Of a DNA stretch of 64,000 nucleotides, positions 3,467 to 53,861 are shown in pieces; within the stretch, counting starts at the first letter, position 1, and every line of letters begins with the position of its first letter. Where the stretch lies: the IMG/VR virus record IMGVR_UViG_3300047089_000307, positions 64,001-128,000 of that record, one strand, 5' to 3'. The stretch comes from a virus. The notes under the pieces were generated by a model. It was given only the letters and a program-made list of their open reading frames with translations, was not told where the DNA came from and ran no database searches. Both the position numbers and the translations under genes were made by a program.

Positions 3467-3469
3467 CGC

Positions 3470-31671: not shown

Positions 31672-32016
31672 GTGACTGCATACGGCTTTGACCTGGACGG
31701 GACGCTCGATCGCCCGGCGCTGGCCCGGCTGGCGAATGACCTGCACGACGTCGGCCATGAGGTCTACGTGGTAACCGGCGGCCTGGGCGATACAGGCGAG
31801 TGGACGCTGCCGGCCCGTGAGCGCACGCTGGCCGCGCTCGGCGTGCGCTACACGGCGATCATGCGCTGCATTGACCCGGACATCCGGCAGCTGGGCCTCC
31901 TGAAAGGCGAGCAGTGCGCCCGGCTGGGCATCGCCGTCATGGTCGATGACGACCGGCTCTACCTGGACGGCGTCGCCGCCGCGGCCAGTGACGTCGTGCG
32001 GCTGCTGGTGCTGTGA
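31672..32016 (+). CDS. HAD-superfamily hydrolase
   Basis: FDLDGTLD, VTG, K and MVDDD motifs. Confidence 0.75.
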   Translation: MTAYGFDLDGTLDRPALARLANDLHDVGHEVYVVTGGLGDTGEWTLPARERTLAALGVRYTAIMRCIDPDIRQLGLLKGEQCARLGIAVMVDDDRLYLDGVAAAASDVVRLLVL

Positions 32017-32351
32017 TGAGCGGCGTGAGCGGCGCGGACCTGTACCGGGAACTGGTCGGGCAGGCGTACGAGCGCCGCAGCGACTGGCGCAATGACCACC
32101 GGAGCCTGTACTGGGTGATGAGCCATGAGTGTCGCAATGTCATCATGCAACTGTGCTCACCGCAGGGATGGCCGGCCCTGGAGCTGTCGCGCACCGAGGG
32201 CCTGCGGGACATGCTGTTCGGCTACCCGGTCATCGCCGGGCCTGCCTACGGCCCGCCGCTGCTGACTGACGACCCGCTGGCAGCGGCGCAACGCGTGCAG
32301 CTGATCGCGCGGAACCTGACGCTAGCGGAACTGGCTAGTGAGCCGGGCTAG
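32013..32351 (+). CDS. Small protein with capsid-like WVM...LFGYPV segment and ARxLTL tag
   Basis: WVMSHEC..VIMQL...G.P...LFGYPV; ends ARNLTLAELASEPG. Confidence 0.55.
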   Translation: MMSGVSGADLYRELVGQAYERRSDWRNDHRSLYWVMSHECRNVIMQLCSPQGWPALELSRTEGLRDMLFGYPVIAGPAYGPPLLTDDPLAAAQRVQLIARNLTLAELASEPG

Positions 32352-32580
32352 CCCACGGTACGATGACTTATACTCTGCAAGACCGAGAAAGGGAGGTCAC
32401 GTGGATAGCAGGGTGACGATCTACGTGCCGCCGGAGCTAAGGGAGAAGCTCAGCTGGCTGCCCCCGCGCACCATCAGCCGGATCTGCCAGCAGGCACTGA
32501 GCGCCGAGGTGACCCGGCGGCTGACGCTGCGGGACGAGGCCGTCGAGGATGCTTTCGCCGAGGACTGAGAAAGGGACCTC

Positions 32581-32940
32581 ATGCCTGACGTCGTGACCGT
32601 GCGCAAGGACGAGCTGCTGGAGGTGCTGCGCAAGAACCGGGCCGCGCACCGGGAGGCGTTCCTGAAGGCGCAGGCAGGCTACCGGGCCCGCGCCATCGCA
32701 GAGCTGGACCGGTCCCTGGCGGACGCGCGGGCCGGCCGGGACATCCGGCTGATCGTCAGCCTGCCGGTGCCCGAGGACCACACGGAGGACTACGACCGGG
32801 AGATCCGGATGCTGGAGATGCACACCGGGAACACCGTCGAGCTGGAGTCCCGGCTGTTCGACCAGGTCGTGATGGACCGCTGGCGCTGGTCGTCCGCCTT
32901 TGAGACCACCAACTCCGCGTACCTGGGCAAGCCGCGGTGA
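32581..32940 (+). CDS. Conserved hypothetical phage protein
   Basis: V.K.ELL..L..NR..H...P.DHT.DYD..I.ML...V.D.W.W pattern; good RBS. Confidence 0.6.
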   Translation: MPDVVTVRKDELLEVLRKNRAAHREAFLKAQAGYRARAIAELDRSLADARAGRDIRLIVSLPVPEDHTEDYDREIRMLEMHTGNTVELESRLFDQVVMDRWRWSSAFETTNSAYLGKPR

Positions 32941-33223
32941 GCAGGCGGGCAGAGGTGAGGTGGCGGGCGCGGGACGTGAGCCGGACCATCGCGTTCACCA
33001 TCCGGCGCCGGCCAGCGCGGTACCTCGGCTGGATGGCCCTCCTCCTGACCGGGGAGGAGACATCGATAGCGGTGGCCTTCTTCAATCCCGTCGCGGCATG
33101 GGCAGCCGTGGCCTGCGCCGTCGCCGCCGCGATCCTGTTCTCGGCTGACAGTGCGCGGCTGCGGAAGAGAGCCCGGCAGCGGCCACTGGACGAGCTAGAC
33201 GAGCTGGGCAAGGAGTGGCCGCA

Positions 33224-34258
33224 GTGACCACGATCTCCTTCACCGCCTCCCGCTTTAACTTCGCCCCGCCGCCGTCCGTCGTGGCCAGCGTGCTGTCCGC
33301 CCGGGTGCCGCTCGCGGACCGCTACGTCACCGGGGCCTGCCAGGGCGGGGACGCCTGGATCGGCGCCTGGCTGTACGTGACCAGGCCGGCCGCTGAGCAC
33401 GTCGTGGTGGTCCCGTGTAACCGCCGTCAGGTCGACCCCTGGTGGACGCGCACCGGGAGCCTGCCGCTGGTGACCGTCATCGACATGCCCCCGGGCACCA
33501 ACTACGCCGACCGGAACCGGGAGCTAGTGGCCAGGGCTGACCAGGTCTTCGGCTTCCCGGCATTCCCGGAGGAGGACCCGCGGTCGCAGCGCAGCGGCAC
33601 CTGGCAGACGATCCGGATGGCCCGCGACGCCGGGAAGCTGAGGCTGTGGCAGTGCGTCACGCCGCCGTACCGGGGGCAGGTTGAGGCCCTGACGGGGGAG
33701 CCGGACCTCGCGGCGCCGGCCACCGTCTCCTATCGCGAGGAGCTCGCGCGGTTCATGACCGCGGAGGGCGAGGAGAAGATCCGGATGCTCTTCGCGGAGC
33801 CGGATGAGCACCAGCCGTGGTGCGGAGACGCGTCGCTGAGCCGGCCGGACGATGAGTGCACTTGCGACGTCACCCCGGAGATGCAGTACGCGCAGCGCGG
33901 CCAGTCCGAGGCGGAGCAGGCCCGGCGCGGGGATGACGGACTCACGGACGAGGAGCGCGCTGAGTACGCCCGGCGCTTCTGGGCGGTGGCCAATGCCCCA
34001 GTCTCGCCCGAGATGCGGGCAGCCACGCGCCGTCGCCTTGACTCCGCGGCCATCGGCGAGTCCCGGCACCAGGCCCGGCGCGGGGATGACGTCGAGGCAT
34101 GGCTGAGGGGCTGGCGGGACCTGCTCGGCGGCGACCCCTGGCACGCCGTGAACGGGCTGCTGGATGATTACCGCAAGCGGGCCGATCTCGGGATTGCCCT
34201 CGATGACGATAGCGAAGCAGGGCACGCCGCTGGGCACGGAGCCGGCGAGGATGAATGA
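33224..34258 (+). CDS. SLOG (DprA/YspA-like) domain protein with C-terminal extension
   Basis: FTASR, TGACQGGD, Y.DRN..LV and SGTWQTIRMA. Confidence 0.6.
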   Translation: MTTISFTASRFNFAPPPSVVASVLSARVPLADRYVTGACQGGDAWIGAWLYVTRPAAEHVVVVPCNRRQVDPWWTRTGSLPLVTVIDMPPGTNYADRNRELVARADQVFGFPAFPEEDPRSQRSGTWQTIRMARDAGKLRLWQCVTPPYRGQVEALTGEPDLAAPATVSYREELARFMTAEGEEKIRMLFAEPDEHQPWCGDASLSRPDDECTCDVTPEMQYAQRGQSEAEQARRGDDGLTDEERAEYARRFWAVANAPVSPEMRAATRRRLDSAAIGESRHQARRGDDVEAWLRGWRDLLGGDPWHAVNGLLDDYRKRADLGIALDDDSEAGHAAGHGAGEDE

Positions 34259-34601
34259 CCCGTCGCAGGTGAGCTACCAGGACCTGTGGGCGTACCTGGT
34301 CGATGAGTACTACCGGTTCCGGCTCCTGGACGCCCCTCGCCGCGGGCCCTGGGCCTGTCACCTGTGGTGGGTAATGCACCCGCGCTGGCTGCACCCGTGC
34401 CTGAACGCAGAAGTAATGAACATGAGCTACCGCATGTACCAGGAACAGCGCAAGAGCCCGGAATGGCTGCTGACCGGCATCCCGGTCCTGGAAGGCATGA
34501 AGTTCGGGGAGCCGAAGCTGACGCGGGACCCGGCCAGCCTCAGCAAGGGGCCGTACCTGCACGCCCGGCCGCTGACGCTGCGGGAGCTGATGAGCCGGTG
34601 A
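34251..34601 (+). CDS. Small protein with capsid-like WVMHP...LTGIPV segment and ARPLTL tag
   Basis: Ends LHARPLTLRELMSR. Confidence 0.55.
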   Translation: MNDPSQVSYQDLWAYLVDEYYRFRLLDAPRRGPWACHLWWVMHPRWLHPCLNAEVMNMSYRMYQEQRKSPEWLLTGIPVLEGMKFGEPKLTRDPASLSKGPYLHARPLTLRELMSR

Positions 34602-35164
34602 CCACGGTAGCGATTGACTTTGACGGAGTTATTCACCGGTACTCACGCGGCTGGCAGGACGGGTCCATCTACGACTTGCCGTTCGACGGGGCGCTGGACG
34701 GGCTACGGCAGCTGATGAGCAGGCACGCGGTCTTCATCTTCACGTCCCGGAACACCGCGCAGGTCGCAGGCTGGCTTCATGACCACGGGTTCAAGGTCAG
34801 CACCGATGACTCGGCCTTCCGGCATGACCGCGACTGGGACGGCGTGTTCTGGGAAACCCGGGGCGTGCTGCTCGTCACTAACCGGAAGCTGGGCGCCTCC
34901 GCTTACCTCGATGACAGGGCCGTCAGGTTCACTAGCTGGAAGCAGGCGCTCGCCGACCTGGGGACGGGAACTGGTCCGGAACCGGACGCCGCCGAGGCGC
35001 TGGCGCGGGAGATCCTTGAGGCGGCATGCCAGCGGGACGGCCTCTCGCTGGAGTCGGACGCGGACCCGGGGAAGCCTGCCCGCAACTACGAGCTGGCGCT
35101 GCGCCTGGGCATCGGGCACGTGTTCGGGCTAGGCCCTGCGCGCGGCGATGAGGTGGAACGATGA
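34598..35164 (+). CDS. HAD-superfamily phosphatase / nucleotidase
   Basis: AIDFDGVIH, FTSR and K..A.AYLDDRA. Confidence 0.8.
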   Translation: MTTVAIDFDGVIHRYSRGWQDGSIYDLPFDGALDGLRQLMSRHAVFIFTSRNTAQVAGWLHDHGFKVSTDDSAFRHDRDWDGVFWETRGVLLVTNRKLGASAYLDDRAVRFTSWKQALADLGTGTGPEPDAAEALAREILEAACQRDGLSLESDADPGKPARNYELALRLGIGHVFGLGPARGDEVER

Positions 35165-36352
35165 CCGCCTGGCTAAGCCCCGGAGGGGAAGACCGCAACG
35201 GGCAGGATCACCCGTGGCACGGCGCGCTGGACGTTGACGAGAGCGCGGTCGACATGCTGGTGATCGTCTTCGCCGAGTGCCGGGAGCTGGGCATCGCGAT
35301 CTCCGGCTTCATGCCGCTGGACACGCCGGCCCACCAGCGCGCGGCCGTCATGCACCTGTCCCGGCTGGTCCTGCGGGAGAAGAGGGAGCGCGGGCTATGA
35401 GCGAGACGGCCCCGAAGGTCAGCTTCACCGTCACCACGTACTGGAAGCGCCCCCGCGGCCAGCCGGGGCTAACGCGGATGGGCAGCCGGCGGCTGACGCT
35501 CAGCGAGGCCCTGGACTGGGTGCTCGCCGAGCTGCCGGCCGACGCGGTCACCCTGGCGCACGACCTGGATGACGGCCGGAACGTGGTGACCGTCACCATC
35601 GACTGGGGCAAGGTACCGATGGAGGCCAGGGACGGTGCCCGGTGAGCAAGCCCGGTGCCCGGTACGAGATCACCGCGATCCGGCGCGTCCGCTGCCCGCT
35701 GTGCGGGTCGGCGGCCGGGCAGTGGTGCACGAGCCGCAGCGCCAGCGACCCGGTTCCGATCGCGCACCCGCACCCGGAACGGATCGCAGCGGTGCTCGCG
35801 GCCAGGAAGGCGAGGAGGCAGGAGCCATCATGACCGAGTGCGGGGTACCAGGCTGCGCAAGCCACCCGGAGCCGCTGCTGACCGCGGCCGAGCGTAACCT
35901 CATCCGGGCGCTCGGCCTGGCCTACCGGCAATTCGAGGAGCTGGCCGGCCATTCCCCGCTGACGCGCGACGATGACCTGGCCGAAGTCCGGCTGCACGTT
36001 CACGCACTTCAGCGGATGATCATGGCGCAGGCCGCGGCGCGGGCGTTCCCGGGTGAGCTGCGGGCACTGGGGCTAACCGTCACTGACGGCGCGCTGGCCA
36101 ACCGGGAAGGCAGTGACCCGGGACATGAAGACCGGGCAGTACGCGGCCGGGAAGTCCAGGAGGATGGCAGGCAATGAGCAGCCTGGCTGACCTGAGCACG
36201 ATCATGGCCAGCTGCTTCACGGAGTGGCTGGAATACGAGCACGCCTGGCATGCCCTGAACGACGATGAGATGGCGATCATGACCAGGGCTTTCGGCGCGG
36301 GCTTCCTCTACGGCGGGCTGCTGCTGACGCGCGAAGAGACCGGGGAGCTGCC

Positions 36353-37111
36353 GTGAACACGCCGCTGGCCTGGGACGCCGCGCTCGGCCGGCCGCTGCTG
36401 CTCGATGCCTACTGCGGGGCTGGCGGCATAGCCTGGGGGTACTGGCTGGCCGGCTTCGCCGTCATCGGCATCGATCACCAGCCGCAGCCGCACTACCCGT
36501 TCCCGTTCTTCCAGGGCGACGCCGTCAAGGCGCTGGGCGACCTGATCGCCGGGAAGCCACTGTCCTTCACCTACCAGCCCACGGGCAGCGTCGTGCCGTA
36601 CCGGCTGAAGGACGTCGCCGCGATCCACGCCAGCTGCCCTTGCCAGTTCGCCACCGTATACGGGAACAACAAGGCGCACGTGAAGCAGGATCACCCGAAC
36701 CTGATTCCGCCAACCCGCGAGCTGCTGGCGGCCACCGGGCTGCCGTACGTGATCGAGAACGTCTACGGCGCGCGGGCGCACCTGAAGGACCCGGTCATGC
36801 TGTGCGGCACGTCGTTCGGCATCGAGGTACGGCGGCACCGGCTGTTCGAGTCGACGGTGACGATCCCCTCGGTTCCCTGTGACCACGGCCGGTTCACGGC
36901 ACGCAAGTACCCGGGCAGCTCCAACCGGCCGAACGGGCGCACCGTGTGCAACATCGGCGAGTACCGCGTCCCGCTGGCGGTCCAGCAGGCCGCGATCGGG
37001 ATCAGCTGGATGAACCTGGCGGAGATCGCGCAGGCGATTCCCCCGTGCTACACCGAGTTCATCGGCATGTTCCTGATGAACGACCTGATCCTGAAAGGGC
37101 GTGAGCCATGA
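36353..37111 (+). CDS. C5-cytosine DNA methyltransferase-like protein
   Basis: LDAYCGAGG (motif I), HASCPCQ (catalytic PC), IENV, RHRLFE and AIPP.YT. Confidence 0.8.
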   Translation: MNTPLAWDAALGRPLLLDAYCGAGGIAWGYWLAGFAVIGIDHQPQPHYPFPFFQGDAVKALGDLIAGKPLSFTYQPTGSVVPYRLKDVAAIHASCPCQFATVYGNNKAHVKQDHPNLIPPTRELLAATGLPYVIENVYGARAHLKDPVMLCGTSFGIEVRRHRLFESTVTIPSVPCDHGRFTARKYPGSSNRPNGRTVCNIGEYRVPLAVQQAAIGISWMNLAEIAQAIPPCYTEFIGMFLMNDLILKGREP

Positions 37112-40560: not shown

Positions 40561-40563
40561 CGC

Positions 40564-41280
40564 ATGTACCACGGAACATCCCTTACCAGCCCGGAGCGCA
40601 CGATCACCGCAGAGGTGATCTGCGCCGGGCGCCGGCTGCCCTTCTACCAGCGCCCGGCAGACGGCTACCCCTACATTCCCGGAACCGCCGGGGCCAGCTA
40701 CCTGATCGCGGTGCGGAACCTGGGCACCCGGCGCATCGAGGTGCTCGCCGCCGTGGACGGCATGAGCCTGATCACCGAGGAGGAGGCGTCCCTGGAGCGC
40801 AGCCAGGGCCTGGTCATCCCCGCGCACGGGGAGTACCGGTTCGCCGGCTTCCGCACCGGGGACGACTCCTCCCGGGAGCTGGTCTTCGGGGACCCGGCCG
40901 GGTCGGTCGCGGAGCAGGCCACCGGGTCCGCGGCAGGCTGCGGCGTGATCGGCATCGCCGCCTGGGTAGAACAGCACGCGCCCGCCTGGACCGCCGCCGC
41001 GGGAGGAGCAGCGCCCCCGGTCAGCGGCTTCGAGACCCGCGGCGGCACCCGGGGCATGACCCCGAACGCCTCCCGGGGGCTGGGCACGCACGCCGGAGCC
41101 GAGCGCCACGACCCGGTGGGCCGCACCTCGTTCACCCGCGCGCACGGGAGGCCGGACGTGCTGGTCATCGGCTACAAGGAGCTGGCGGAGCTGGAGGCGA
41201 TGGGGATCACCGGCCCGGCCGACCCGGAGCCGTTCCCCGGTGACGTGAAGGCGGCCGGGTACCGCCGGTACGCGCCGTGA
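40564..41280 (+). CDS. Conserved hypothetical protein
   Basis: Y.I.VRN...RRIEVL.AVDG...GFR...G.IG.A...GLGT.AG...SF.R; AGAAAGG RBS. Confidence 0.6.
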   Translation: MYHGTSLTSPERTITAEVICAGRRLPFYQRPADGYPYIPGTAGASYLIAVRNLGTRRIEVLAAVDGMSLITEEEASLERSQGLVIPAHGEYRFAGFRTGDDSSRELVFGDPAGSVAEQATGSAAGCGVIGIAAWVEQHAPAWTAAAGGAAPPVSGFETRGGTRGMTPNASRGLGTHAGAERHDPVGRTSFTRAHGRPDVLVIGYKELAELEAMGITGPADPEPFPGDVKAAGYRRYAP

Positions 41281-41870
41281 CAAGGCAGTTCACCATCGTG
41301 CTGACCAGCGCTGACGGGCAGGTTAACTCGCGGTTCGAGTGCGAGGCGCAGACCCCGCAGGCTGCGCTGACGGCTTTCGCCGGCGCGGGACCGAGGACGT
41401 GGCTGTACGGCCTGACCGCTGACGAATGGCTGCACCTGGCCAGCGAGGGCGAGGACAGCGAGGTGCAGCCCTGCTGCGGTAACGTCGGCGAACTGCGCGA
41501 CCTGCTGCGCGCCCTGGCCACGTTCCAGTCCCGGGATGACACGGGGTGGCAGCTCAGTATCGGCCGCCACATCCTGGAGAACCTGGACGGCGACGGGGAC
41601 GGGCACGGCCTGGGCGACGCCGCCGCGTTCCCGCTGCTGCACCGGGTGCTGGACGGCATCCGGGCGCAGCAGGCCGGCCAGGGCCCGGGCGAGGAGTCGT
41701 CCCACCGGGGGGCAGGTGACCGGCCCTGATCATCTTCGGCAAGTGCACCGCGTGCGAGGGCACCGGGGACCACAACGCCTGCGGCGGGGACGGTTGCCGG
41801 AACTGCGACTGGACGGGCACGTGCAGCGCCTGCGGCGGCCGGGGAACGAAATGACGGGGGTGGCCGCCCT

Positions 41871-42452
41871 GTGACTGAGGAAGCGCCGCGGGCCGGGCCT
41901 GCCCTGACCGCGGCACAGCAGGACCTGCTGCGCCGGCTAACCCAGGGCCCGCAGCCGGCGGTAACCTGCGTGCTCGGCGTCGACCCCGGCCCTGTCACGG
42001 GCATCGCGTGGCTGTGCTCCGGGCCGGGGCAGCGTCCCCTGGTCTTCCAGTGCAATGCCGCGGGCGCGTACCCGCTGGCGAGCTGGCTGCTGGAGGCCAG
42101 CGAGGGGCCGGCCCGGATCATCTGCGCCGGCGAGCGGTTCATCACCGGGCGCGGCGCCGGGGCCAGGGGCGCGAACGCTACCGCCACCCGGCAGGTGATC
42201 AGCGACCTGGACCGGCTCGCCAGGTGGCACTGGCGCAGCGCAGCAGAAGTGAAACCCTGGGCAACCGACGCCCGGCTGAAGGCGGCAGGGCTGCTGGAGC
42301 AGTGCCACGGCATGCCGCACGCTGCCGACGCGTGCAGGCATGCTTTGTTTGCCATGATCCACGACTGTGGCATGCCCGATCCGCTCTCGCGCAAGGCGGG
42401 CACGCTCTATGCCCGGTCACTGTCGCTGGAAGAACTGGAGGGCTTCTCATGA
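41871..42452 (+). CDS. RuvC-like Holliday junction resolvase
   Basis: VLGVDPG..TG.A, ERF, K and HAADA..HA; also carries a C-terminal ARSLSLEE tag. Confidence 0.75.
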   Translation: MTEEAPRAGPALTAAQQDLLRRLTQGPQPAVTCVLGVDPGPVTGIAWLCSGPGQRPLVFQCNAAGAYPLASWLLEASEGPARIICAGERFITGRGAGARGANATATRQVISDLDRLARWHWRSAAEVKPWATDARLKAAGLLEQCHGMPHAADACRHALFAMIHDCGMPDPLSRKAGTLYARSLSLEELEGFS

Positions 42453-42869
42453 TGCCGGCTGACGGGGAGAGCAGCTTCCGGATGGTGCTGACCTCGAATT
42501 CCTGCCCGCGCTGCGGCGCCATCACCTACCTCCGGCTGTCCGCCTCCGCAGAGGGAAGCGTCGCCGTGGCCGGCGAGCAGCCACCGCCCGTCGACAACCG
42601 GGCGCAGCACGCGGACTGGCACGAGCGGACGGGCACGTGAGCGCCTGGCGGCTAGTGGCGGGCCTGGCCGGCGTGGCGGCGGCACTCGCGGCCGTGATCC
42701 TGGCAGCCCAGGCGGTCGCCAGGGGATCAGTGCTGGAGATCGCGTTCCTGCCCGCGCTCATCGGGCTGCCCGCCAGCGTCGCGGTGATCATCCTTGAGCC
42801 GTCCTCCCCGGGCGAGGATGATGATGACGACGAGGATGACGAGCCGGGCTGGCGCGAGCGGACGGGCAC

Positions 42870-43232
42870 GTGAGCAGGCACCGGGGCCGGATAGGGTTCC
42901 GGGGCGGCTGGGCGCTGACGTACGAGGAAGACCGCTGGTGGCCGTCCTGGGAGAGTGCTTCCCGGCTGCACTGCGTCACCTGGACGCTGGACGACGTGGT
43001 CATGACGCAGGCGCAGTACGAGCGGGCCGCCGCCGTCCGGGACGACGCTCCGTACTGGCTGACCGCCATGGCAGCCGGGCTTGCGATGACGGCCGGGCTC
43101 GCGATGGTCAGCGGGATCTTGCTCAGCGAGGCTGAGGCGATGGCCATCCGGCGCGGCGCTCACCCGCTGACGGTGCTGCTGCCCCGGACCTGGGCCCGGC
43201 CGCTGACCCTGGCGGAGATGATGGGTGCATGA
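42870..43232 (+). CDS. ARPLTLxEM-tag family protein
   Basis: RGGWAL near the N-terminus; ends WARPLTLAEMMGA. Confidence 0.7.
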   Translation: MSRHRGRIGFRGGWALTYEEDRWWPSWESASRLHCVTWTLDDVVMTQAQYERAAAVRDDAPYWLTAMAAGLAMTAGLAMVSGILLSEAEAMAIRRGAHPLTVLLPRTWARPLTLAEMMGA

Positions 43233-43540
43233 GCGTGCTGGCGCAGCGAGACGGCTGGACGCTGGAGACAGGCCCGCCTTCCCCTCCTGACTTCCCCTGT
43301 GCTGCGTTCATCCTGCGCGAGCTGGCCGTGACGCAGGAGCAGTGCGCCGCCATCTTGTACCGCTGCGGCCGGACCGGGTCCTGGTTCCGGGTCCCCGTCC
43401 CCGGCGGATGGGTCATGACGCTGGAGCTGGACCGGGCGGAGGCGCACGCGATCGGGCTGCTGGGACGCGACCCGCTGACGGTGCTGGCTCCCCCGCTGCA
43501 CGCCCGGTCACTGACCCTGAGGGAGATGATGAGCGCATGA
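43229..43540 (+). CDS. ARPLTLxEM-tag family protein
   Basis: MSVLAQRDGWTL...HARSLTLREMMSA. Confidence 0.75.
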   Translation: MSVLAQRDGWTLETGPPSPPDFPCAAFILRELAVTQEQCAAILYRCGRTGSWFRVPVPGGWVMTLELDRAEAHAIGLLGRDPLTVLAPPLHARSLTLREMMSA

Positions 43541-43857
43541 GCGTGCTGGCGCAGCGAGACGGCTGGACGCTGAGCGCGTGGCGCTGGCCCCGGAGCGGCA
43601 GCCTGCTCCGGCACGTGTACCAGCTCCGGCACGTGTACCAGCTGGACGGGCTGACGGTAACGGACGCGCAGCTCCAGGCCATGACCGCCCGGTCATCGCA
43701 CATGTGGTGGGTAAGCCCTGAGTGCCTGATCATGCACGGCGTCAGCCTCACCTGGGAGCAAGCCCGCGCAATCCAGGACGGGGCAAATCCGGTAACCGTG
43801 CTGACCCCTCGCTTCCGGGCCCGGTCACTGACCCTGAGGGAGATGATGGGCGCATGA
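43537..43857 (+). CDS. ARPLTLxEM-tag family protein
   Basis: MSVLAQRDGWTL...RARSLTLREMMGA. Confidence 0.75.
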   Translation: MSVLAQRDGWTLSAWRWPRSGSLLRHVYQLRHVYQLDGLTVTDAQLQAMTARSSHMWWVSPECLIMHGVSLTWEQARAIQDGANPVTVLTPRFRARSLTLREMMGA

Positions 43858-44237
43858 GCAGGATAGTCATGAAACGACGGCTGCGGTGCGGCGCGGTGCT
43901 GACCGCGCAGGAGCACTGGGAGCACTCGATGGGCGTCATGTCGCCAGGGCACCGGGAGGTACTCTTCACGCTGCATGACCTCCCGGTGACGCCCGGAGAC
44001 GCCGAGCGGCTGATGTCGGCGCGACCGCGGCCATGGCGTCGGGGTGCAGGCAGCTGGATTACCAGAACCTTCATGCACCAGTACGGCGCGAACGTCACCC
44101 CCGTCTTGTCCCTGTCCCGGATTCAGGTCACGCCGCAGGAGGCGGACCGCATGCTGTCCGGGGAGCACCCGATGGCGGTGCTGCTGCCGCCGCTGTACGC
44201 GCGGTCGCTGACCCTGGCGGAGATGACGGGCGCATGA
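43854..44237 (+). CDS. ARPLTLxEM-tag family protein
   Basis: Ends YARSLTLAEMTGA; ATGA overlaps on both sides. Confidence 0.7.
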   Translation: MSRIVMKRRLRCGAVLTAQEHWEHSMGVMSPGHREVLFTLHDLPVTPGDAERLMSARPRPWRRGAGSWITRTFMHQYGANVTPVLSLSRIQVTPQEADRMLSGEHPMAVLLPPLYARSLTLAEMTGA

Positions 44238-44563
44238 CGTGCAGCGAGATGCTCGCCGCCCGGGACGGCTGGACGCTGGACGCGGCGTGGGAGGGCGCCT
44301 TCCCGTACGGGACCGTGTCCTCCCCGGTTCGCTGCACGCTGTCCGGGCTGCGGGTGACGAGGAGCCAGGCCCGCGCCATCACCACGGGCCGGGCCGTGCT
44401 CACCGTTGAGCACGAGTACCCGTTCGGCAGCTTCTTCCTCCTGCACCTGGAGGTCACGCCGGCCGAGGCTCACGCCATCGCGGGCGGCAGGCACCCGCTG
44501 AACGTGCTGATGCCGCCGCTGTACGCGCGGTCGCTGACCCTGGCGGAGATGACGGGCACGTGA
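44234..44563 (+). CDS. ARPLTLxEM-tag family protein
   Basis: ARDGWTL...YARSLTLAEMTGT. Confidence 0.75.
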   Translation: MTCSEMLAARDGWTLDAAWEGAFPYGTVSSPVRCTLSGLRVTRSQARAITTGRAVLTVEHEYPFGSFFLLHLEVTPAEAHAIAGGRHPLNVLMPPLYARSLTLAEMTGT

Positions 44564-45006
44564 CCCGCGTCACCGGCAGGAACGGGATCATGTACCTCGG
44601 CACGGGGCCGGGCGCGCTGCTCGGCCAGCCCGTGGCTTATATCCCGGACTGGTCCATTGACTTCGACGTCCTGCCGGCAGCACTGACCGGGGTGACGCTC
44701 GCCGAGCGGGACGGCTGGACGCTGCGGGCCGGCACCGCCCCGTACGGTCACTTCGGCGATACGCGCCCGCTGTACGTGCTGGAGAACCTGATGGTGACGG
44801 CCGGGCAGGCGAGCCAGGTCATGCGGCACCGGCCGGGGGACCTGCCCTGGCACCTGGGCCACGGCAACGGCCCGCTGCGGCCGATGAAGATGGTGCTGAC
44901 CACGGAGGAGACGGTGCGCGTCTGGCGCGGGGCCGACCCGCTGGCCATGCTGGCCCCGCCGCTGCGCGCCCGCGCGCTGACCCTGGAGGAGATGATGAGG
45001 GAATGA
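44560..45006 (+). CDS. ARPLTLxEM-tag family protein with tail-tube-like N-terminus
   Basis: MTRVTGRNGIMYLG...DWSIDF matches the tail tube N-terminus; then ERDGWTL...RARALTLEEMMRE. Confidence 0.75.
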   Translation: MTRVTGRNGIMYLGTGPGALLGQPVAYIPDWSIDFDVLPAALTGVTLAERDGWTLRAGTAPYGHFGDTRPLYVLENLMVTAGQASQVMRHRPGDLPWHLGHGNGPLRPMKMVLTTEETVRVWRGADPLAMLAPPLRARALTLEEMMRE

Positions 45007-45416
45007 GCTGGGACTGGCCGGGCTGGCGACTGGCCCGCACCTTCCACGGCAGCCGGAACGGGATGGCCCGGCGCGATAACTGGACGCTGGAGACCTGGCA
45101 GTACGAGGCGCCGCTGACCTGTTACTCCGAGTACCTCATCCCGCGCGTGACCACCGACGTGCGGTACGTGCTGTCCGGCCTGACGGTGACGCCCCGCGAG
45201 GCGGATGCCATCACCGGCCGTCGCCTGGGGCACTTCGCGCCGCCGCGGGCCAGCGTGCACTACGGCTACGGCCCTGGCCCGGTCCTGGTGATGGACGACA
45301 TTGAGCTGACCATGGACGAGGCGGCGGCCATCGTAGACGGCACCGACCCGGTGGCCGCGCTGGCGCCGCGGATCAGGGCACGGCCGCTGAGCCTTCAGGA
45401 GATGATGGGCGCATGA
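45003..45416 (+). CDS. ARPLTLxEM-tag family protein
   Basis: RRDNWTL...RARPLSLQEMMGA. Confidence 0.75.
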   Translation: MSWDWPGWRLARTFHGSRNGMARRDNWTLETWQYEAPLTCYSEYLIPRVTTDVRYVLSGLTVTPREADAITGRRLGHFAPPRASVHYGYGPGPVLVMDDIELTMDEAAAIVDGTDPVAALAPRIRARPLSLQEMMGA

Positions 45417-45664
45417 GCGAGGGCTACTCCTGGCGGGACCTGACGGGCTTCCTGGTGTCCGTCCACCGTGACCAGGCCGCCCGGCAAGAAGCCGGGGACC
45501 GCCAGGTCGCGGCACTGCGGGCGTCGGTCTGGCAGCTCCAGCGCCAGGCCGGCGTGATGACCCTGAATGAGGTGCGGGCCCGGCAGGACAGGGCGTCCCT
45601 GCCGCCCGGCACGATCGTGCTGCGCGCCCGGCCGCTGAGCCTTCAGGAGATGCTAGGCACGTGA
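45413..45664 (+). CDS. Tagged small protein with portal-like AGVMTLNEVRAR segment
   Basis: Ends RARPLSLQEMLGT. Confidence 0.65.
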   Translation: MSEGYSWRDLTGFLVSVHRDQAARQEAGDRQVAALRASVWQLQRQAGVMTLNEVRARQDRASLPPGTIVLRARPLSLQEMLGT

Positions 45665-45695
45665 CGCAGGACAACGGAAAGCGAGTGCGCACGCC

Positions 45696-46070
45696 ATGCG
45701 GCCACCAGGAATTACCTACGATGCCCCCCGGCCGCAGCCGTGGACGCTGACCCAGGTCCGGGACTACCCGGGCGGGCCGCGGCGGTGGCAGCTGGCCCTG
45801 GAGGTTACCGGCGGCGAGCAGGCCAGGGCGGTCCGGCTAGCGCGGGGCGGCAGCGGGGTGATGCGGACCCGGGACGACGGCGTCATGCGGTACCCGGAGG
45901 CTTACCTGTTCGAGTTCATCGACGTCACCGCGGAGGAGATGCTCGCCATCGCGGGCGGGGCCAGCCCGCTGGACGTGCTGCTGCGCGGCCCGGACGGGGC
46001 GCGGCAGTGGCTGTGGCCGCTGGTGCTGCGCGCCCGGCCGCTGAGCCTTCAGGAGATGCTGGGCACGTGA
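45696..46070 (+). CDS. ARPLTLxEM-tag family protein
   Basis: WTL...VTAEEM.AI.GG..PL.VL...RARPLSLQEMLGT. Confidence 0.7.
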   Translation: MRPPGITYDAPRPQPWTLTQVRDYPGGPRRWQLALEVTGGEQARAVRLARGGSGVMRTRDDGVMRYPEAYLFEFIDVTAEEMLAIAGGASPLDVLLRGPDGARQWLWPLVLRARPLSLQEMLGT

Positions 46071-46240
46071 GCCACGGGGACTACGTGCAGCTCCTGGCGA
46101 GGCTGTACCTGGCCGGGATCATCACCGCAGCCAAGGCCCGCTGCCTGCATGAGGCCGCTTTCACGCGATGGCGGGCAACGACCGGGGGGCCGCTGCCGCT
46201 GGCAGCCCGGCCACTGACCCTGGCCGAGATGCTGGGCTAG
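46067..46240 (+). CDS. Tagged small protein
   Basis: LYLAGIITAAKAR...AARPLTLAEMLG. Confidence 0.6.
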   Translation: MSHGDYVQLLARLYLAGIITAAKARCLHEAAFTRWRATTGGPLPLAARPLTLAEMLG

Positions 46241-46647
46241 TACCTGGCGATCTTCCGGACGACGAGAGCGAGTACGCCGATGATCAGGACCACGATGACC
46301 CAGGCAGCCAGGTCGGATGCCCACACGGGCAGTATCCCGGGGCCGGGGTGGTAGCAAGAGGGATCGCCGGGCCGGCCCGTGAAGCCGTGGCACCGGCCCA
46401 GTGTCCCTGCCATCAGCCCGGCCCGGCCAGCAGGTGACCGGGTGGGGCTGGGTACTCATCGCCGTGTGCGTATCGGCGCTTCTCTTCCTGGCCGCGTGCT
46501 GGGCGGGCACTTGCTCGGTGAAGGGGTGCCGTGAGCCGGTGCGGTTCCACTCGATGGCGCGGCCGGGGACGGACGTGTGCGCCCGGCATTTCTGGGAGGA
46601 ATGGGACGACGGTTACCGGTGCTGACTGACCCTGCCATGCGCGCGGG

Positions 46648-47442
46648 CTACTCCGCCTTGTCATACGCTGCCCGGATCTTCGCCAGCACGGCGTGCTCGG
46701 AGCCGCGGCCCTGCGCGGCGCCGGCCAGCTCCCAGGTGCCGGCCGCCTTCATCGCCCGCATCAGGCGCTCGTGCTCCAGCTCGGCGTTGCCCAGGGCCAG
46801 GCCCACCGCCTTGACCAGCGTCACGTTCGTGCGCCGCTTGTCGTCACCGGGGAAGCACTCGCGCAGGGCGCGCAGCGTCTCCCGTAGCCGGGGCTCGCCG
46901 CCGATGGCCAGCACGTAGGTACCCGCGCTGATGCCGATCGTGGTGGCGCTGTCGGTCCGCTGGCCTATCGTGAAGCCCTGCTCCTCGAACATGCGGTTGA
47001 CGGTGAACGCGAGGCTGCCGTCATCGAACTCGATGTCACTGCGGGCCGCCTCGGTCAGCGTCACCTTCTTCAGCCGCTGAAGGTCCTGGAAGATGCGGTT
47101 CTCCTGGGCCAGCGTCAGGCCGCGGAGCACCCGGCACGGGACCAGGTGGTTCGGGCCGAACTTCTCGTGCAGCCAGTGGTTGGAGGCGTTGCCGTCCAGC
47201 GTCCAGTACTGGTGGCTGTCAGAACGGTAGGACACGACGCGCGGGCGCAGTAGCACAGGATTGTAGTCCTGGAACGCCTTGGCCCTCGCCCTGAGCGTTG
47301 ACAGGTACCTGACGCTGTCCTCGGGGCGGTTGCGCTGCGGCCCGCGCAAGGTGGCGAACGCGGACACCAGTATGCCGACCGGCAGCATGGTGTCCTCGTA
47401 GTTCTGCGGCGGAGCCTCGGGGTAGATGACCTTCTTTGCCAA
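46648..47442 (-). CDS. ParB/Srx-like (DUF6551-like) protein
   Basis: QR, VVS.R...YWTLDGN and VPC.V..GLTLAQE..IF; TTG start after a GAAAGGGG RBS. Confidence 0.55.
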   Translation of the reverse strand: MAKKVIYPEAPPQNYEDTMLPVGILVSAFATLRGPQRNRPEDSVRYLSTLRARAKAFQDYNPVLLRPRVVSYRSDSHQYWTLDGNASNHWLHEKFGPNHLVPCRVLRGLTLAQENRIFQDLQRLKKVTLTEAARSDIEFDDGSLAFTVNRMFEEQGFTIGQRTDSATTIGISAGTYVLAIGGEPRLRETLRALRECFPGDDKRRTNVTLVKAVGLALGNAELEHERLMRAMKAAGTWELAGAAQGRGSEHAVLAKIRAAYDKAE

Positions 47443-47498
47443 CGGAATCCCTTTCAAGGGGTAGCTTCTCACTCACATCATACTCTAAGAGACTACCT

Positions 47499-48740: not shown

Positions 48741-48791
48741 AGACCCCAAGATACCGGTAACAGGGCCCGGCACCGAGTGAAACGGCGCCGG

Positions 48792-50404
48792 GCTCCCGTG
48801 CCTGCCTAGCCAGGCCCGTCCTAGCCGAGCCATTCCTGCCGGGGCGGGCCGCGCCCAGCCCTGCCTAGCCTTGCGACGCCTGCCGAGCCTTGCCCAGCCG
48901 CGCCACGCCAAGCCCTGCCTGCCCAGCCGAGCCTAGCCCAGCCGCACCACGCCTAGCCATGCCTGCCACGCCAGACCTTGCCCTGCCTAGCCATGCCTGC
49001 CGGACCTCGCCTCACCTAGCCAAGCCATGCCGCGCCTGCCCTGCCGTGCCGCGCCGGGGCCTGCCGAGCCTAGCCATGCCTGCCTAGCCGAGCCCTGCCG
49101 AGCCTAGCCATGCCATGCCTGCCAGTCCTGGCCTTGCGTCACCCCGCCTTGCCCCGCCGTGTCCATCCCTTTTACGCCGGATGCTGCTGCTCCCGTGCCT
49201 GCCCGGCCACGCCAGACCTCGCCGCGCCTAACCTCACCTGCCCCGCCATGCCAGACCTTGCCGCGCCTAACCTCACCTGCCGCGCCAGACCTCGCCATGC
49301 CCTGCCGTGCCTAGCCGTGTCCATCCCTTTGCGCCGGATGCTGCTGCTCCCGTGCCTGCCGCGCCGCACCTGGCCATGGCTAACCTCACCGCGGCTGCCG
49401 AGCCGATCCCAGCCGTGCCTAGCCGTGCCGGCCCTGACCTCGCCTGCCCTGCCGCGCCGCGCCTGACCCAGCCAGGCCACGCCATGCCTGCCGCGCCGAC
49501 GCGCGCCACCCCGTGCCAAGCCACGCCCTGCCTGCCGGTCCCCGCCTAGCCCCGCCTGGCCATGCCAGCCCGAGCCATGCCTGCCTTGCCAGACCTTGCC
49601 TCGCCGTGCCTTGCCGTGCCTGCCCGGCCTCGCCACATCGCGCCATGCCTCTCCTTGGCCAGCCTCGCCATGCCTGCCCCGCCTGGCCTCGCCGGACCCT
49701 GCCCTGCCGCGTCCATCCCTTTACGCCGGATGCTGCTGCTCCCGTCCCTGCCGGTCCCGGCCTAGCCTCACCGAGCCTGACCTGCCTGACCGCGCCATGA
49801 CGCACCGAGCCTTACCGGTCCCTGCCTGCCATGCCACGCCACCCCGTGCCAAGCCCTACCTGCCCTGCCGCGCCGCGCCCTGCCGTGCCGTGCCTCGCCT
49901 GCCGCGCCTGGCCCTGCCGCACCGCACCATGCCACGTCCATCCCTTTACGCCGGATGCTGCTGCTCCCGTGCCGGCCAGACCTGCCGAGCCATGTCGTTC
50001 CGCTCCGCGCCATGCCCTGCCTGCCAAGCCACGCCCCACCCCGCCGAACCGAGCCATGCCTGCCAGGCCGTGCCGAGCCGCGCCTAGCCACGCCACGCCA
50101 TGCCTGCCGGGCCATGACGCACCGCGCCTTGCCGCGCCACACCGTGCCTGCCCCGCCTTGCCAAGTCCATCCCTTTGCGCCGGATGCTGCTGCTCCCGTG
50201 CCTGCCCCGCCTAGCCAAGCCTTGCCACGCCGCGCCTTGCCTGCCGGGCCGGACCCCGCCGGGCCGGACCATGCCGAGCCGCACCATGCCGTGCCTGCCG
50301 GACCGGACCACGCCACGCCGCACCATGCCGTGCCTCGCCTGCCGCACCAAGCCTCGCCGGACCCCGCCTTGCCATGTCCATCCCTTTCAGCCGGATGCTG
50401 CTGC
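48792..50404 (-). ncRNA. GGY-NN pentamer array, putative guide-RNA array (VIPR-like)
   Basis: Minus strand reads GGC AA GGC GG GGT CC GGC GA GGC TT GGT GC GGC A GGC ... for ~1.6 kb, split into six blocks by a conserved ~42 bp repeat; lies directly downstream of the RAMP-like operon. Confidence 0.8.
49161..50404 (-). repeat. Six copies of a conserved repeat (up to ~42 bp) inside the array
   Basis: Plus-strand GTCCATCCCTTT(T)RCGCCGGATGCTGCTGCTCCCGT starts at 49161, 49319, 49711, 49936 and 50165; a variant starts at 50376; a partial GCTCCCGTGCCTGCC is at 48792. Confidence 0.95.
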
Positions 50405-50854
50405 CTTCTTCACCTGCGCCTCGTGCTCGGCGATGACCTCGGCAAGCTCCTGCCAGAACTCGGGGTAGTCGCGGTACCGCTGGGCCATGGAGCGGACCTC
50501 GCGGCGGATGCGCAGCAGGATCAGGCCCTGCTCCTGCGTCGTGAGCGAGGTGACGCTGGAGTACGTGCCGGGCGGCGAGGGGATGCCGATCATCCGGTCG
50601 GCCACGTACTTGCGCATCATGACCGCGCGCTGGCCGCCGGACGCGACCTCGCGGACGACGGCCACCCGGTAGCTGCGGATCAGGCCGCGGGCCTCCTCCA
50701 GGCGGCGCTGCGCCGCGGCGATGGCGTCATCCCAGGTGAACAGCCCGTGCAGCGCGCTGTCCTCCGGCCGTGCTGCCGCCACGACCTCATCGGCGTGCAG
50801 CTTGCCGCGGGAGTCCTCCAGCCCCTTCAGGGCCTTCAGTACCTCATCCCTCAC
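50387..50854 (-). CDS. Accessory protein coupled to the RAMP-like gene
   Basis: GTG start overlaps the upstream TGA; L.ADEVV.AAR.EDS.LH..F.WDD..AA...RL.EAR.LIR motif; 155 aa. Confidence 0.8.
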   Translation of the reverse strand: MRDEVLKALKGLEDSRGKLHADEVVAAARPEDSALHGLFTWDDAIAAAQRRLEEARGLIRSYRVAVVREVASGGQRAVMMRKYVADRMIGIPSPPGTYSSVTSLTTQEQGLILLRIRREVRSMAQRYRDYPEFWQELAEVIAEHEAQVKKAAASG

Positions 50855-51543
50855 AGGACTATCTCCTTGACCTCGGCGTCGTCCGGCACCCGGAACGTGC
50901 CGTAGGAGCCAGTATTGGATTCCTTGCTGGCCGGGCGCCACTCGCCGATGCCCGCGAAGCCGGCGGCGTCCACCAGCGCGATGACGGACTCCAGCGTCAG
51001 CGAGTTGCGCACCCAGACCACCTCCAGCACCGCCGACCACGGCCAGTACTCCGGCCGGAAGCGGATGTCGGCGACGCCGGTCTCGTTGCGCGCGTAGTCC
51101 TGGCGCATCACCGCGGTGGCCGGGACGAGCGCCGACTCCTCGCCGGTCCACTCCCCCCAGACGGGGACCAGCAGCGTGCGGTTCGCCTGGTCGGTGCCCG
51201 GCTCGCCGTTGACGAAGATCATCCGGCGCAGGTCCGTCATGGGCAGCTTGGAGCCCTTGAAGAACCGGGCCGCGTCCACGATGGCGGCCTTGAAGCCGAC
51301 CGAGGGGAACGCGGGGGCGCCGCCGGGGAGCAGGTGCTGGGCGTCGCGGAAGTTCTGCTCCGGGTCCTTCGGCTGGCGCTCGACGGGCTTGCCCATCTGC
51401 CGGTCGAGCATGATCTGCTGGGCCTTGGCGCTGAACTTGTTGGTGATGAGCGGGGTGAGGCCCTGGACGGGCACCCGGATCATGGAGCGGCCGAGCCGCT
51501 GGAGCGAGATCGCGCCCGTGGTGGTGGCCTTCGCTGGGGGCAT
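50851..51543 (-). CDS. Stand-alone Cas7/RAMP-like RNA-binding protein (Vipr-like)
   Basis: N-terminal strand with GLTPLI, FPSVGFKAAI (compare RAMP P.ss.KG), R.RP....W and a C-terminal Gly-rich loop GFAGIGEWRP...GSYGTF.V; AAAGGGA RBS. Confidence 0.75.
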   Translation of the reverse strand: MPPAKATTTGAISLQRLGRSMIRVPVQGLTPLITNKFSAKAQQIMLDRQMGKPVERQPKDPEQNFRDAQHLLPGGAPAFPSVGFKAAIVDAARFFKGSKLPMTDLRRMIFVNGEPGTDQANRTLLVPVWGEWTGEESALVPATAVMRQDYARNETGVADIRFRPEYWPWSAVLEVVWVRNSLTLESVIALVDAAGFAGIGEWRPASKESNTGSYGTFRVPDDAEVKEIVL

Positions 51544-52501
51544 CAGGCTTCCCTTTCTTCTTTACATGGACTGACTGATACCCCACGATACTCTAAGACT
51601 GCTATCCTGGACTACATGAGCACTAAGGGCATGAAGGGTCACGGGGGCATCGATCCGTATGCAGGCAACGGCTGGTCCTCCCTGTACTGCCACGACTGTG
51701 AGCAAACCTGCTCCCCGGCTAGCCCGTGCGACCACTGCGAGCCGGAGGTCTGCACCAGCAAGGGCCGCGTGATCTACCGGGGGCCTGAGCGAGTGCAGGG
51801 GACAGGGGGATGGGAGCGCGAGCCGTGAGCTACCAGGGCAGCAACCGCAATGACGAGAAGGCACCGGATGAGGTGACGGGCACGCTGCTGGTCACGGTCA
51901 CCGTATACGGCGGGACGCTGGCGGACGCGGCGACCGCGCTGTCCAGTTACCGGGGCAAGGGCTGGGGCCGGGAGATGACCGACCTGCTAAATGGCGGGGA
52001 GTTCGAGGTCATCGCCGCTGACGTCGCTAAGGACGTCACGGCCGGCGACGCTGATCCTGACGTCATGAGCGAGCAGGAGCTGCGCGAGGAGATCACCCGG
52101 GTCGTCCTCGCGCAGCGAGCAGACTGCGCGGAGCACCCGATGCCGTTCCCGCGGCCGTCGTGCTGGGCGTGCGCCCGCAACGGGGCCTTCCACCGGGCGG
52201 CGCTGCTCGCGGCGGGCCGCTGGCCGGCCGCTGACCCGGTGACGTACGTGCTGCCCGCTCAGCCGGGCCGCTGGCCGGCCGCTGACCCGGAAGGAGCTGA
52301 TGACGAGACGGCCGCGCCAGCCAGGCACAAGGCACGCGTGCGCAGCACCGGCCTGCGCTATGACGGCGTGCGGCTGTGGCGCTGGGCCTGCCCGCACTGG
52401 GACCAGGGCCGGAACCGGAACTGCCGCGGCGGCGACTACGGGTCCTGGGCCATGGCCGTCCGTGACGCCGTCCGGCACGCCGGGTCAGGCGGCACGGCCT
52501 G

Positions 52502-52831
52502 GTGAGTAATCGCCACGGGCTGGCCCGGGACGGCTGGGGGCTGCCCGTCGCCGGGGACGGCTGGACGCTGACCGTGGAGCCGCTGCGCGGCCGTGACAAG
52601 TACGTCCGGTTCGCGCTGCGCGGGCCGGTCGCAAACGTGACGCCCGGCGAGCGGGCCGCGCTGCGGGTGTTCCAGGCACCGGGCGGCTGGCCGGCGATAG
52701 GCGTGGACGGCGGCATCGAGGTGAGCTGGGAAGAGGCGCAGCTGATCCGGGGCGGACGCGACCCGCGGCACGTGCTGTGGCCGCCGCTGCGGGCCCGGGC
52801 GCTGACGCTGGCGGAGATGATGAGCCGGTGA
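52502..52831 (+). CDS. ARPLTLxEM-tag family protein
   Basis: ARDGW, DGWTL...RARALTLAEMMSR. Confidence 0.7.
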   Translation: MSNRHGLARDGWGLPVAGDGWTLTVEPLRGRDKYVRFALRGPVANVTPGERAALRVFQAPGGWPAIGVDGGIEVSWEEAQLIRGGRDPRHVLWPPLRARALTLAEMMSR

Positions 52832-53151
52832 ACCGCCTGCTGCTCCCGGGCCCGCGGCCGTCAGGAAGCTACCCGGTGCCGGAGGAGTACGCGCAGCGAC
52901 TGCTGCGCGCGGCCGGGTGCACCGGGGCGATGCTCCTGGGCTGGCGCGACGGGCTAGGGCCGCGCTGCCGGATGTGCGGCCGGGTCGCCGTCATCCCCAC
53001 GGCCGCGCTCTGGGAGCGCATCGCGGGCTGGCGCGTCCCTGACCCCGCGTACAGCATGCGCGAGCACGCCCGCTGGGCGCTGGCCGACCCGGAAGCCAGC
53101 CGCGCCGTCATGGCCGGGGGCGCGGTCCTGCTGGAGATGATGGCGAGATGA
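52828..53151 (+). CDS. Hypothetical protein with partial tag
   Basis: Ends LLEMMAR; overlapping start and stop. Confidence 0.55.
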   Translation: MNRLLLPGPRPSGSYPVPEEYAQRLLRAAGCTGAMLLGWRDGLGPRCRMCGRVAVIPTAALWERIAGWRVPDPAYSMREHARWALADPEASRAVMAGGAVLLEMMAR

Positions 53152-53474
53152 CCGTGACGCGGGCGCGCGACGGCTGGACGCTGCACATCGAGAAGAGCCC
53201 GCCCGGCAGCCGTTTCGTGAACCGGACCTGGCTGGACGGGCTGGCCGTCACCCGGGAGCAGGCGCATGCCATCATCACCGCGGGGGGCGCGGAGCGCACG
53301 TGGACGCTCGCGGGATACCACCAGGAGTGGCCGGCCCATGTGCTCATCCTGGACAGGGTCGGCGTGACCCGGGAGGAGTACCTGGCGATCCTGGGCGGGC
53401 GCGATCCGGTGAGCGTCCTCCTGCCGCTGCTGCGGGCCCGCGCGCTAACGCTGGCGGAGATGATGGCGCAGTGA
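53148..53474 (+). CDS. ARPLTLxEM-tag family protein
   Basis: ARDGWTL...RARALTLAEMMAQ. Confidence 0.75.
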   Translation: MTVTRARDGWTLHIEKSPPGSRFVNRTWLDGLAVTREQAHAIITAGGAERTWTLAGYHQEWPAHVLILDRVGVTREEYLAILGGRDPVSVLLPLLRARALTLAEMMAQ

Positions 53475-53861
53475 CGATGACCCGGATGCTGGCGGCGGCG
53501 CACAGTCGCAATCACGACGAGCGTCCCGGCGACTGCGGCCGGAGCCGTTGCGGTCACCGGCACTACGACGCCTGGCGCGGGACTGGCGGAAGCCGCCTGC
53601 GCCGGCGCGGGCAGCGCGCCCGGGAGCGCCGCCTCGTCACCCGTGAGCTGGCGGAGCTGATGGCGCAGTGACGCAGGACATTACCCTGGCGGTCATCTCC
53701 GGCGCGGCCAGCGCGGTGATGCTCGTCCTGGCGCGCGGGATGTGGACGCAGGCGCTCCGCGACGCGGTGAACCTCCTCGGCGGCCTGCTGGCCGTGCTCT
53801 GCGTCGTGGCTGCCATCGGCGCGGCACTCACGGCAGGATGACCTGGAGATGATGACGGGGG

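Follow-up and report, generated by a model that had tools for sequence, protein, structure and literature searches.

The DNA analysed here (the window, 64,000 nucleotides) represents bases 64001–128000 of the IMG/VR virus record IMGVR_UViG_3300047089_000307, which is linear, 158,651 bp long and estimated to be 75% complete. It derives from an uncultured, high-GC phage with a size of ~160–200 kb, and the G+C content of the window is ~70%. Genes were called by ourselves, based on third-position G+C. The record encodes 17 proteins, with at least eight different bodies, that end in the same 12-residue peptide, hereafter the tag, whose core reads hydrophobic-x-[AV]-R-x-L-[TS]-x-x-E-[LM]-[MTL] and is followed by two or three residues and the stop codon. 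Fifteen of these carriers are in the window (Table 1). A first, sequence-only reading had listed the same 15 open reading frames (ORFs) as ending in the tag, which was borne out for every one when their C-termini were read; the partial copies that it placed in the ORFs starting at 52828 and 53471 are likewise present, with the ends LLEMMAR and ELAELMAQ.

The tag occurs far beyond chance expectation. A six-frame search for the pattern R.L[TS]L.E[LM] gave 15 matches in the window and 17 in the whole record, and the 17 record copies are all on the plus strand, one to five codons ahead of a stop codon. Twenty codon shuffles of the record gave no match, and a looser motif was found in the predicted proteins of the record 17 times at the terminus and never internally, with 0.075 matches expected. 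Scans with the DNA pattern of the tag retrieved only pilins, alanyl-tRNA synthetases and chance matches, and were reused as a control, in which chance matches to AR.LTL.EM in unrelated genomes lay six or fewer residues from the stop in only 2 of 81 cases.

The carriers are of two kinds. The claim that the tag is attached to unrelated bodies holds for five of the 15 window ORFs and fails for the other ten, which are paralogs of one small-protein family and share the N-terminal motif RDGWTL, a pair of [VL]-T-x-x-E/Q-A helix starts and the C-terminus G-x-D-P-L-x-V-L-L-P-x-L-x-A-R-x-L-T-L-x-E-M. A family profile, built from the ten window paralogs and two orthologs from the close relative L011, retrieved 105 cluster representatives from 1.84 billion metagenome proteins. 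These are mostly 95–150 aa long and most have the tail at their end, with only two or three residues after the motif in 60 of 71 family representatives. Three giant proteins matched by the same profile appear to be spurious repeat matches, and scans of IMG/VR and JGI metagenomes with the family alignment found no relatives. In the 66-row family alignment the R, L and E of the tail are invariant columns, and the near-invariant columns are mostly in the last 25 residues, while the body is highly variable; the tail is thus the best-conserved part of the family. The structure model of the member at 53148–53474 has a mean predicted local distance difference test score (pLDDT) of 77, with 65–68 in the tail. 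For seven carriers in the record and one in L011, the match to the family profile is confined to the last 11–22 residues. Since these non-family carriers match the profile in the tail only, the unrelated bodies are a minority of the carriers, yet a real one, and the short tagged ORFs of 39–83 aa outside the family share no body. The tag is portable.

Relatives were compared as contig fragments: L011, a close relative with 86–94% nucleotide identity to the record; L013, another close relative (76–94% over aligned blocks); L015, a distant relative; L153 and L154; and the distant relatives L150, L151 and L152, each a 20-kb stretch of a 40–110-kb contig. Seven loci (the record, L011, L013, L015 and L150–L152) contain 49 tagged ORFs, 28 of the family and 21 outside it, the latter matching the family in the tail only. 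All 49 tags are C-terminal and 45 stand two to four residues from the end, with or without an overlapping downstream start, although some tags have 5–14 residues after the motif. The last two or three residues are small in many family members (A, S or G, then A or R), but variable.

The comparison of codons and relatives supports selection on the peptide, as the sequence-only reading had supposed from the synonymous variation. The codons for A, R, L, T/S, L and E vary almost only at the third position or synonymously (GCC/GCG/GCA, CGG/CGC/AGG, CTG/CTA/CTT, ACC/ACG and GAG/GAA), with frequencies near the codon usage of the genome. The motif search in related phages, which had been proposed as a check, found 7, 6 and 7 tags per 20 kb in L150, L151 and L152, respectively (pattern [AVILT]R.L[TS]..E[LM]), both within the family and outside it; a dCMP deaminase and the product of a minus-strand gene are among the carriers. 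These distant relatives have the core [AV]-R-x-L-[TS]-x-x-E-L, but its codons and x residues differ from those of the record, and the Leu after T is not conserved. The non-family protein starting at 34251 is only 30% identical overall to its L015 homolog, with matches at 8 of the last 13 positions. The motif is also kept where there is no overlapping downstream gene, as at the ORF starting at 32013 and in 16 of the 49 tags, in which the distance of two to four residues to the end is preserved as well.

The ORF at 41871–42452 encodes a protein whose model indicates an RNase H-like RuvC fold. The model is of mid confidence (pLDDT 66), and its top Foldseek matches are the RuvC structures 7w8d_B (E 1e-5, probability 1.00) and 1hjr. 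Residues 176–193, the tagged tail, have pLDDT below 50 and are modelled as unpacked. Among the 328 homologs with E ≤ 1e-5, C-termini were compared in the best 120: the usual C-terminus falls just after DPLSRK, and an extension of 15–20 residues with the tag or a close variant is present only in the closest homologs. The strict motif is found in seven of them, all within the top 10 matches (67–99% identity), and the L015 copy (42% identity) is without the tag. As the tagged extension is limited to the closest homologs, it was acquired, and the tag can be gained and lost. In addition, a sister subgroup of the small family has a second tail, ..G-Y-R-L-x-A-V-P-D-P-L or ..A-V-P-D-D-L-x-E-F. In two contigs with such members, L153 and L154, the RuvC-like protein ends in ..I-A-V-P-D/A-Q, and a third small ORF of L154 ends in ..L-V-A-V-V-D-D-L-R-E-Y-R. 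Since this second tail is common to several proteins, the tails of different proteins change together between lineages, as expected from a shared receptor or from copying between the genes of one genome.

Genomic comparisons with L011 and L013 revealed five gene gains, losses or replacements that break exactly at gene junctions. Four of the five are located at a tag or inside one, and three have direct repeats on their flanks (46 nt, 31 nt and ~10 nt). The sequence-only reading had suggested that the tag may be a recombination junction, and these events support it. The gene at 52828–53151 is absent from L011 and has GGAGATGATG on either side, and the following ORF (53471–53671) is exchanged in L011 for an unrelated 56-aa gene with a full tag. 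In L013, the cassette 43537–43857, flanked by a 46-nt repeat of tag and junction, is absent, as is a 78-aa gene (42637–42873; the N-terminal part of its product is hydrophobic, the C-terminal part acidic) that is bordered by a 31-nt junction repeat without tag, and an extra 54-aa gene is inserted exactly at the ATGA after the tag of the RuvC-like gene. The two copies of the 31-nt repeat are 94% identical and two adjacent small genes consequently end in ..ERTGT, which indicates that junction duplication is not limited to the tag. In addition, ~50 nt of tag DNA are 90% identical between the non-family gene 45413–45664 and the family gene 45696–46070, which indicates a recent transfer at the DNA level. 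Together with the indels at repeats, this likeness shows that the junction repeats act as crossover points, and that a newcomer can thereby inherit the last codons of its neighbour.

Two further carriers lie outside the window. The ORF at record positions 20100–20396 is directly after an apparent terminase gene and ~1 kb upstream of an apparent portal gene. Its residues 10–63 are 43% identical (54 residues, E 9e-6) to the N-terminal scaffold segment of a candidate capsid protein (record 24050–25300), which appears to be of the HK97 type with a delta-like scaffold segment; this carrier is thus read as a copy of that segment fused to the tag. The other (record 51434–51763) is followed directly by TAA and an A+T-rich spacer.

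Table 1. Tag carriers and associated features (positions in the window unless a record or contig is named)
Feature	Position	Strand	C-terminal end and remarks
Non-family ORF, 112 aa	32013..32351	+	..IARNLTLAELASEPG; tag core 32307–32333, 5 residues before stop; no overlapping downstream gene
Non-family ORF, 116 aa (from the start at 34251)	34251..34601	+	..HARPLTLRELMSR
Predicted RuvC-fold resolvase, 193 aa	41871..42452	+	Grafted tail ..LYARSLSLEELEGFS
31-nt direct-repeat region, non-tag junction	42612..42875	+	Copies 42612–42642 and 42845–42875; ..ERTGT stop, GTGAGC
Run of 7 consecutive family paralogs, all tagged	42870..45416	+	Stop/start overlaps ATGA or GTGA
Family paralog of the run	42870..43232	+	
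Family paralog of the run	43229..43540	+	
Family paralog of the run	43537..43857	+	
Family paralog of the run	43854..44237	+	
Family paralog of the run	44234..44563	+	
Family paralog of the run	44560..45006	+	
Family paralog of the run	45003..45416	+	
Non-family ORF, 83 aa	45413..45664	+	
Family paralog, 124 aa	45696..46070	+	..RARPLSLQEMLGT
Non-family ORF, 57 aa	46067..46240	+	..AARPLTLAEMLG; then TAG, no overlapping gene
Family paralog, 109 aa	52502..52831	+	..RARALTLAEMMSR
Partial-tag cassette	52828..53151	+	LLEMMAR, the 3' half of the tag only; GGAGATGATG at both bounds
Family paralog, 108 aa	53148..53474	+	..RARALTLAEMMAQ; structure-modelled member
Partial-tag ORF	53471..53671	+	..RELAELMAQ
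Carrier outside the window, 98 aa	record 20100–20396	+	43.9 kb upstream of the window
Carrier outside the window	record 51434–51763	+	In a plus-strand gene block adjoining tail genes
Second-tail-type ORFs	L153:1288–1629, 3358–3861		
Second-tail-type ORFs	L154:4655–5005, 5779–5982, 5979–6479		

Some neighbouring genes deserve mention. A 274-aa gene on the minus strand (window 46648–47472) adjoins the family genes; DUF6551 is present in the corresponding proteins of L015 and L151 (a weak match in the latter), and L150 and L152 have proteins of similar size at the equivalent position. A gene for this ParB-fold domain adjoins family genes in five loci, which may be plain synteny. DUF6551 occurs fused to the ParB-CTPase fold, and phage proteins of this fusion class are reported to bind CTP or ATP (bioRxiv 10.1101/2025.10.10.680097). 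A 588-aa protein (window 28727–30493) ends in ..RIARELLGGLR, and the same end is found in L015, L153 and L154, in the last of these on an SNF2-type helicase; its likeness to the tag is superficial, as the [TS]-x-x-E box is missing. Upstream of the second tag cluster there is a 231-aa protein (51810–52505), and in L011 a 55-aa ORF (L011:1863–2030) matches only its C-terminal end. The window also includes a long stretch of short-period repeats (48800–50400) with many overlapping ORFs on both strands and a strong negative GC skew.

The record contains apparent terminase, portal and prohead-protease genes, putatively assigned from position and sequence only, and encodes a RecD-like helicase. The C-terminal part of a 1562-aa protein matches family A DNA polymerases, and its homologs in the relatives have Prim-Pol, DUF5906 and DNA_pol_A domains. 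Among cultured phages, the nearest is the Actinoplanes phage phiAsp2, with 42% identity over the PolA part only, and for this reason the clade is regarded as an uncultured actinophage group. No tag is present in the scanned 38.6 kb (20000–58638) of the 58.6-kb phiAsp2 genome, and a blastn search of window positions 41000–47000 against cultured phages gave no match.

Searches for a family, fold or partner were run on the tagged proteins. Pfam and PHROGs returned nothing for ten of them, except phrog_1981, of unknown function, for the RuvC-like protein. The family model presented no convincing match in Foldseek against PDB, in VIA-align wide or in BFVD (best E 0.23, Z 4.6 and E 0.075, respectively). 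The sole match of a profile of 54 tails to PDB sequences, an internal loop-helix of haloalkane dehalogenase (E 0.016), was judged a chance structural motif, and the beta-clamp motif QL[SD]LF was rejected on inspection. As candidate hubs, SSB, beta-clamp and ClpP were looked for in the record and not found. A homodimer prediction for a family member (66-row alignment, two copies, without controls) scored 0.00 and 0.00, which is not evidence either way.

Taken together, the tag is probably a portable C-terminal docking or sorting peptide under selection, whose DNA secondarily fuels gene shuffling. The [TS]-x-x-E is a helix N-capping box opening a helix of one or two turns. Such a box, preceded by a flexible P-rich linker and placed close to the terminus, is what a short docking motif typically looks like. 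The peptide has also been passed to unrelated proteins within the phage clade, and would hang off each folded body as a flexible tail and dock all carriers to one common partner, which is more likely phage-encoded than host-encoded because the tag versions are lineage-specific. As a consequence of the conserved peptide, its coding DNA becomes a near-identical repeat of 30–50 nt at many gene ends, and recombination between such repeats would add, delete, duplicate and swap genes, with the newcomers receiving the tag. The data fit long-term purifying selection on the peptide, with the conserved DNA secondarily driving shuffling and concerted evolution.

As for the role of such docking, loading into the procapsid or virion may be tentatively put forward, since it is favoured by the analogy with T4 internal proteins (PMC3012670) and by the tagged scaffold fragment. 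Recruitment to the replication-recombination machinery, favoured by the resolvase and deaminase carriers, is conceivable; timed proteolysis is conceivable too, as the small terminal residues and the length of 12 residues would also suit a degron. A tail-mediated assembly with the family's own bodies seems doubtful. With considerable reservation, the tag might be an address label that sends a cargo set of ~17 proteins to one phage-built destination (either the inside of the procapsid, for co-injection, or some other assembly made by the phage). Its lineage versions (..R-x-L-T-x-x-E-L.. and ..A-V-P-D-D-L-x-E-F) would co-evolve with the receptor, and the same sequence would serve as the linker, postulated long ago, through which phages exchange genes in ready-addressed cassettes.

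Several points weigh against a docking peptide. No known family, fold or solved C-terminal peptide matched the tag or the small family in the searches run, and the functionally mixed carriers (resolvase, deaminase, scaffold fragment and small ORFs) fit no single known hub. The tail may be merely part of the fold within the family. That each lineage has its own tag version, and that the 45413 and 45696 tags are near-identical in DNA, points to concerted evolution by recombination, which could keep the tags of one genome alike without function; the ..ERTGT junction without tag is duplicated likewise, so that the C-terminus of a neighbour can pass to new genes as a side effect. In addition, some nucleotide-level constraint remains, as CGG and AGG make up 35 of the 40 Arg codons in tags of the seven loci, against ~53% expected from codon usage. 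The context of neighbouring bases does not explain this bias. The Ser codon is AGC in nine of ten cases, one step from ACC.

In another explanation, which we consider unlikely, the tag outside the family would be a recombination scar without peptide function. The tail would be an ordinary part of the fold in the family, would reach other genes by insertion, fusion or conversion, and would be kept alike by gene conversion at near-identical 3' ends. The 31-nt junction repeat flanking an indel, the ~90% identity of the 45413 tag DNA to its neighbour over 50 nt, the separate tag version of each lineage and the gain of a tag by a 5'-end fragment of the capsid gene are all consistent with it. However, R, L, T/S and E do not change between lineages in which DNA and bodies have diverged to 30–40% identity, the tag codons vary synonymously, and tags outside the family are retained in distant relatives (34251 and its homolog in L015; the RuvC-like proteins of the window and L152). 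A purely structural tail acting in cis, in which a final strand and a capped helix would complete each carrier's fold without any partner in trans, is quite unlikely. The same tail is found on the RuvC fold, on the deaminase and on short ORFs without a common body, the model of the RuvC-like protein shows it unpacked, and most homologs of that protein lack it, although the conservation of the tail in the family, its resemblance to the two helix starts ([VL]-T-x-x-E-A) inside the body and the pLDDT of the family-model tail, which is not fully disordered, would suit such a role.

The sequence-only reading had also proposed that the tag DNA supplies the ribosome-binding site (RBS) of the next gene. 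The GGAG is indeed present, since in 15 of 17 tags G is the last base of the codon preceding E, and an ATGA or GTGA overlap follows 12 of the 17 record tags. These features, with the position two to four codons from the stop in 45 of 49 tags, would fit a translation signal, in which the tag RNA would be the RBS of the overlapping gene or the nascent peptide would pause the ribosome at the stop, coupling termination to re-initiation. Nevertheless, 11 nt separate the GGAG from the following start codon in seven of eight scored tag junctions, whereas elsewhere in the genome the spacing has its mode at 7 nt and is 11 nt at only 3 of 87 other junctions, and a Shine-Dalgarno signal would have its GGAG-type core at the 5–9 nt usual in this genome. 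The RBS explanation fails for this reason; moreover, it accounts for four nucleotides and not for A-R-x-L-[TS], and motif and spacing are also kept in the tags without an overlapping start. The variable last two or three residues and the spacings of 5, 7, 11 and 14 are unlike known arrest peptides. A translation signal is, then, very improbable, and the evidence supports selection acting on the peptide and not on the RBS nucleotides.

Should the tag prove to be an address label, it would group phage proteins that otherwise escape annotation into a functional set, in a clade without a cultured member, give a handle for finding the receptor and offer a ready-made fusion tag for the delivery of proteins to that destination. 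Whatever its function, the tag is a clear natural case of a sequence selected at the protein level that drives modular gene exchange as well. It joins the old idea of targeting peptides to the equally old one of linker sequences in the modular theory of phage evolution, and this connection can be tested by comparing related genomes.

The tag can be compared with several known systems. In encapsulin cargo-loading peptides and in the C-terminal encapsidation tail of the HK97 prohead protease, a C-terminal peptide of ~10–20 residues docks unrelated cargo inside an HK97-fold shell. The tag is also a C-terminal peptide on diverse cargo, and this phage appears to have an HK97-type capsid protein, as its sequence suggests, but the tag has no sequence match to the GSL-type cargo consensus. 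The class III signal of type IV prepilins, [KR]-G-[FLM]-[TS]-L-x-E-[LMV], is strikingly similar in local sequence, and the matches to the tag DNA pattern in soil metagenomes (L016–L029) are prepilin leaders reading ARGLTLVEMMV. However, the pilin motif is N-terminal, with Gly at -1 and followed by ~20 residues of a hydrophobic helix, whereas the tag is C-terminal, has P, S, A or N at that position and in the record meets a stop one to five residues after the motif; its Leu after T is, besides, not conserved in the relatives. Degrons of the ssrA type have defined, LAA-like extreme C-terminal residues that an unfoldase recognises. The last two or three residues of the tagged proteins are small in many family members but vary, and some tags have 5–14 trailing residues.

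In phage T4, the short conserved terminal peptide of the internal proteins, the capsid targeting sequence (CTS), is cleaved off by the prohead protease and has a proven function. According to PMC3012670, which cites Repoila et al. 1994, this peptide is the sole feature common to the diverse, fast-evolving proteins of hyperplastic loci in T4-type phages. The likeness is one short peptide on otherwise unrelated, variable proteins, and here 21 of the 49 carriers match in the tail only. On the other hand, the CTS is N-terminal while all 49 tags are C-terminal, and the carriers here include a resolvase and, in a relative, a deaminase. An L-x-E stands ahead of the protein end in this phage, but its Leu is not conserved in the relatives. 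The promoter-early stem-loop (PeSL) cassettes of T4-type phages are small boundary repeats through which non-essential genes are inserted, deleted or replaced between close relatives (PMC2839356). Repeats at gene boundaries likewise accompany gene indels and replacements between close relatives here (five events, three with direct repeats). Unlike PeSLs, which are intergenic promoter-terminator units, the tag repeat is coding, spans the ATGA or GTGA overlap with no intergenic space and encodes a selected peptide.

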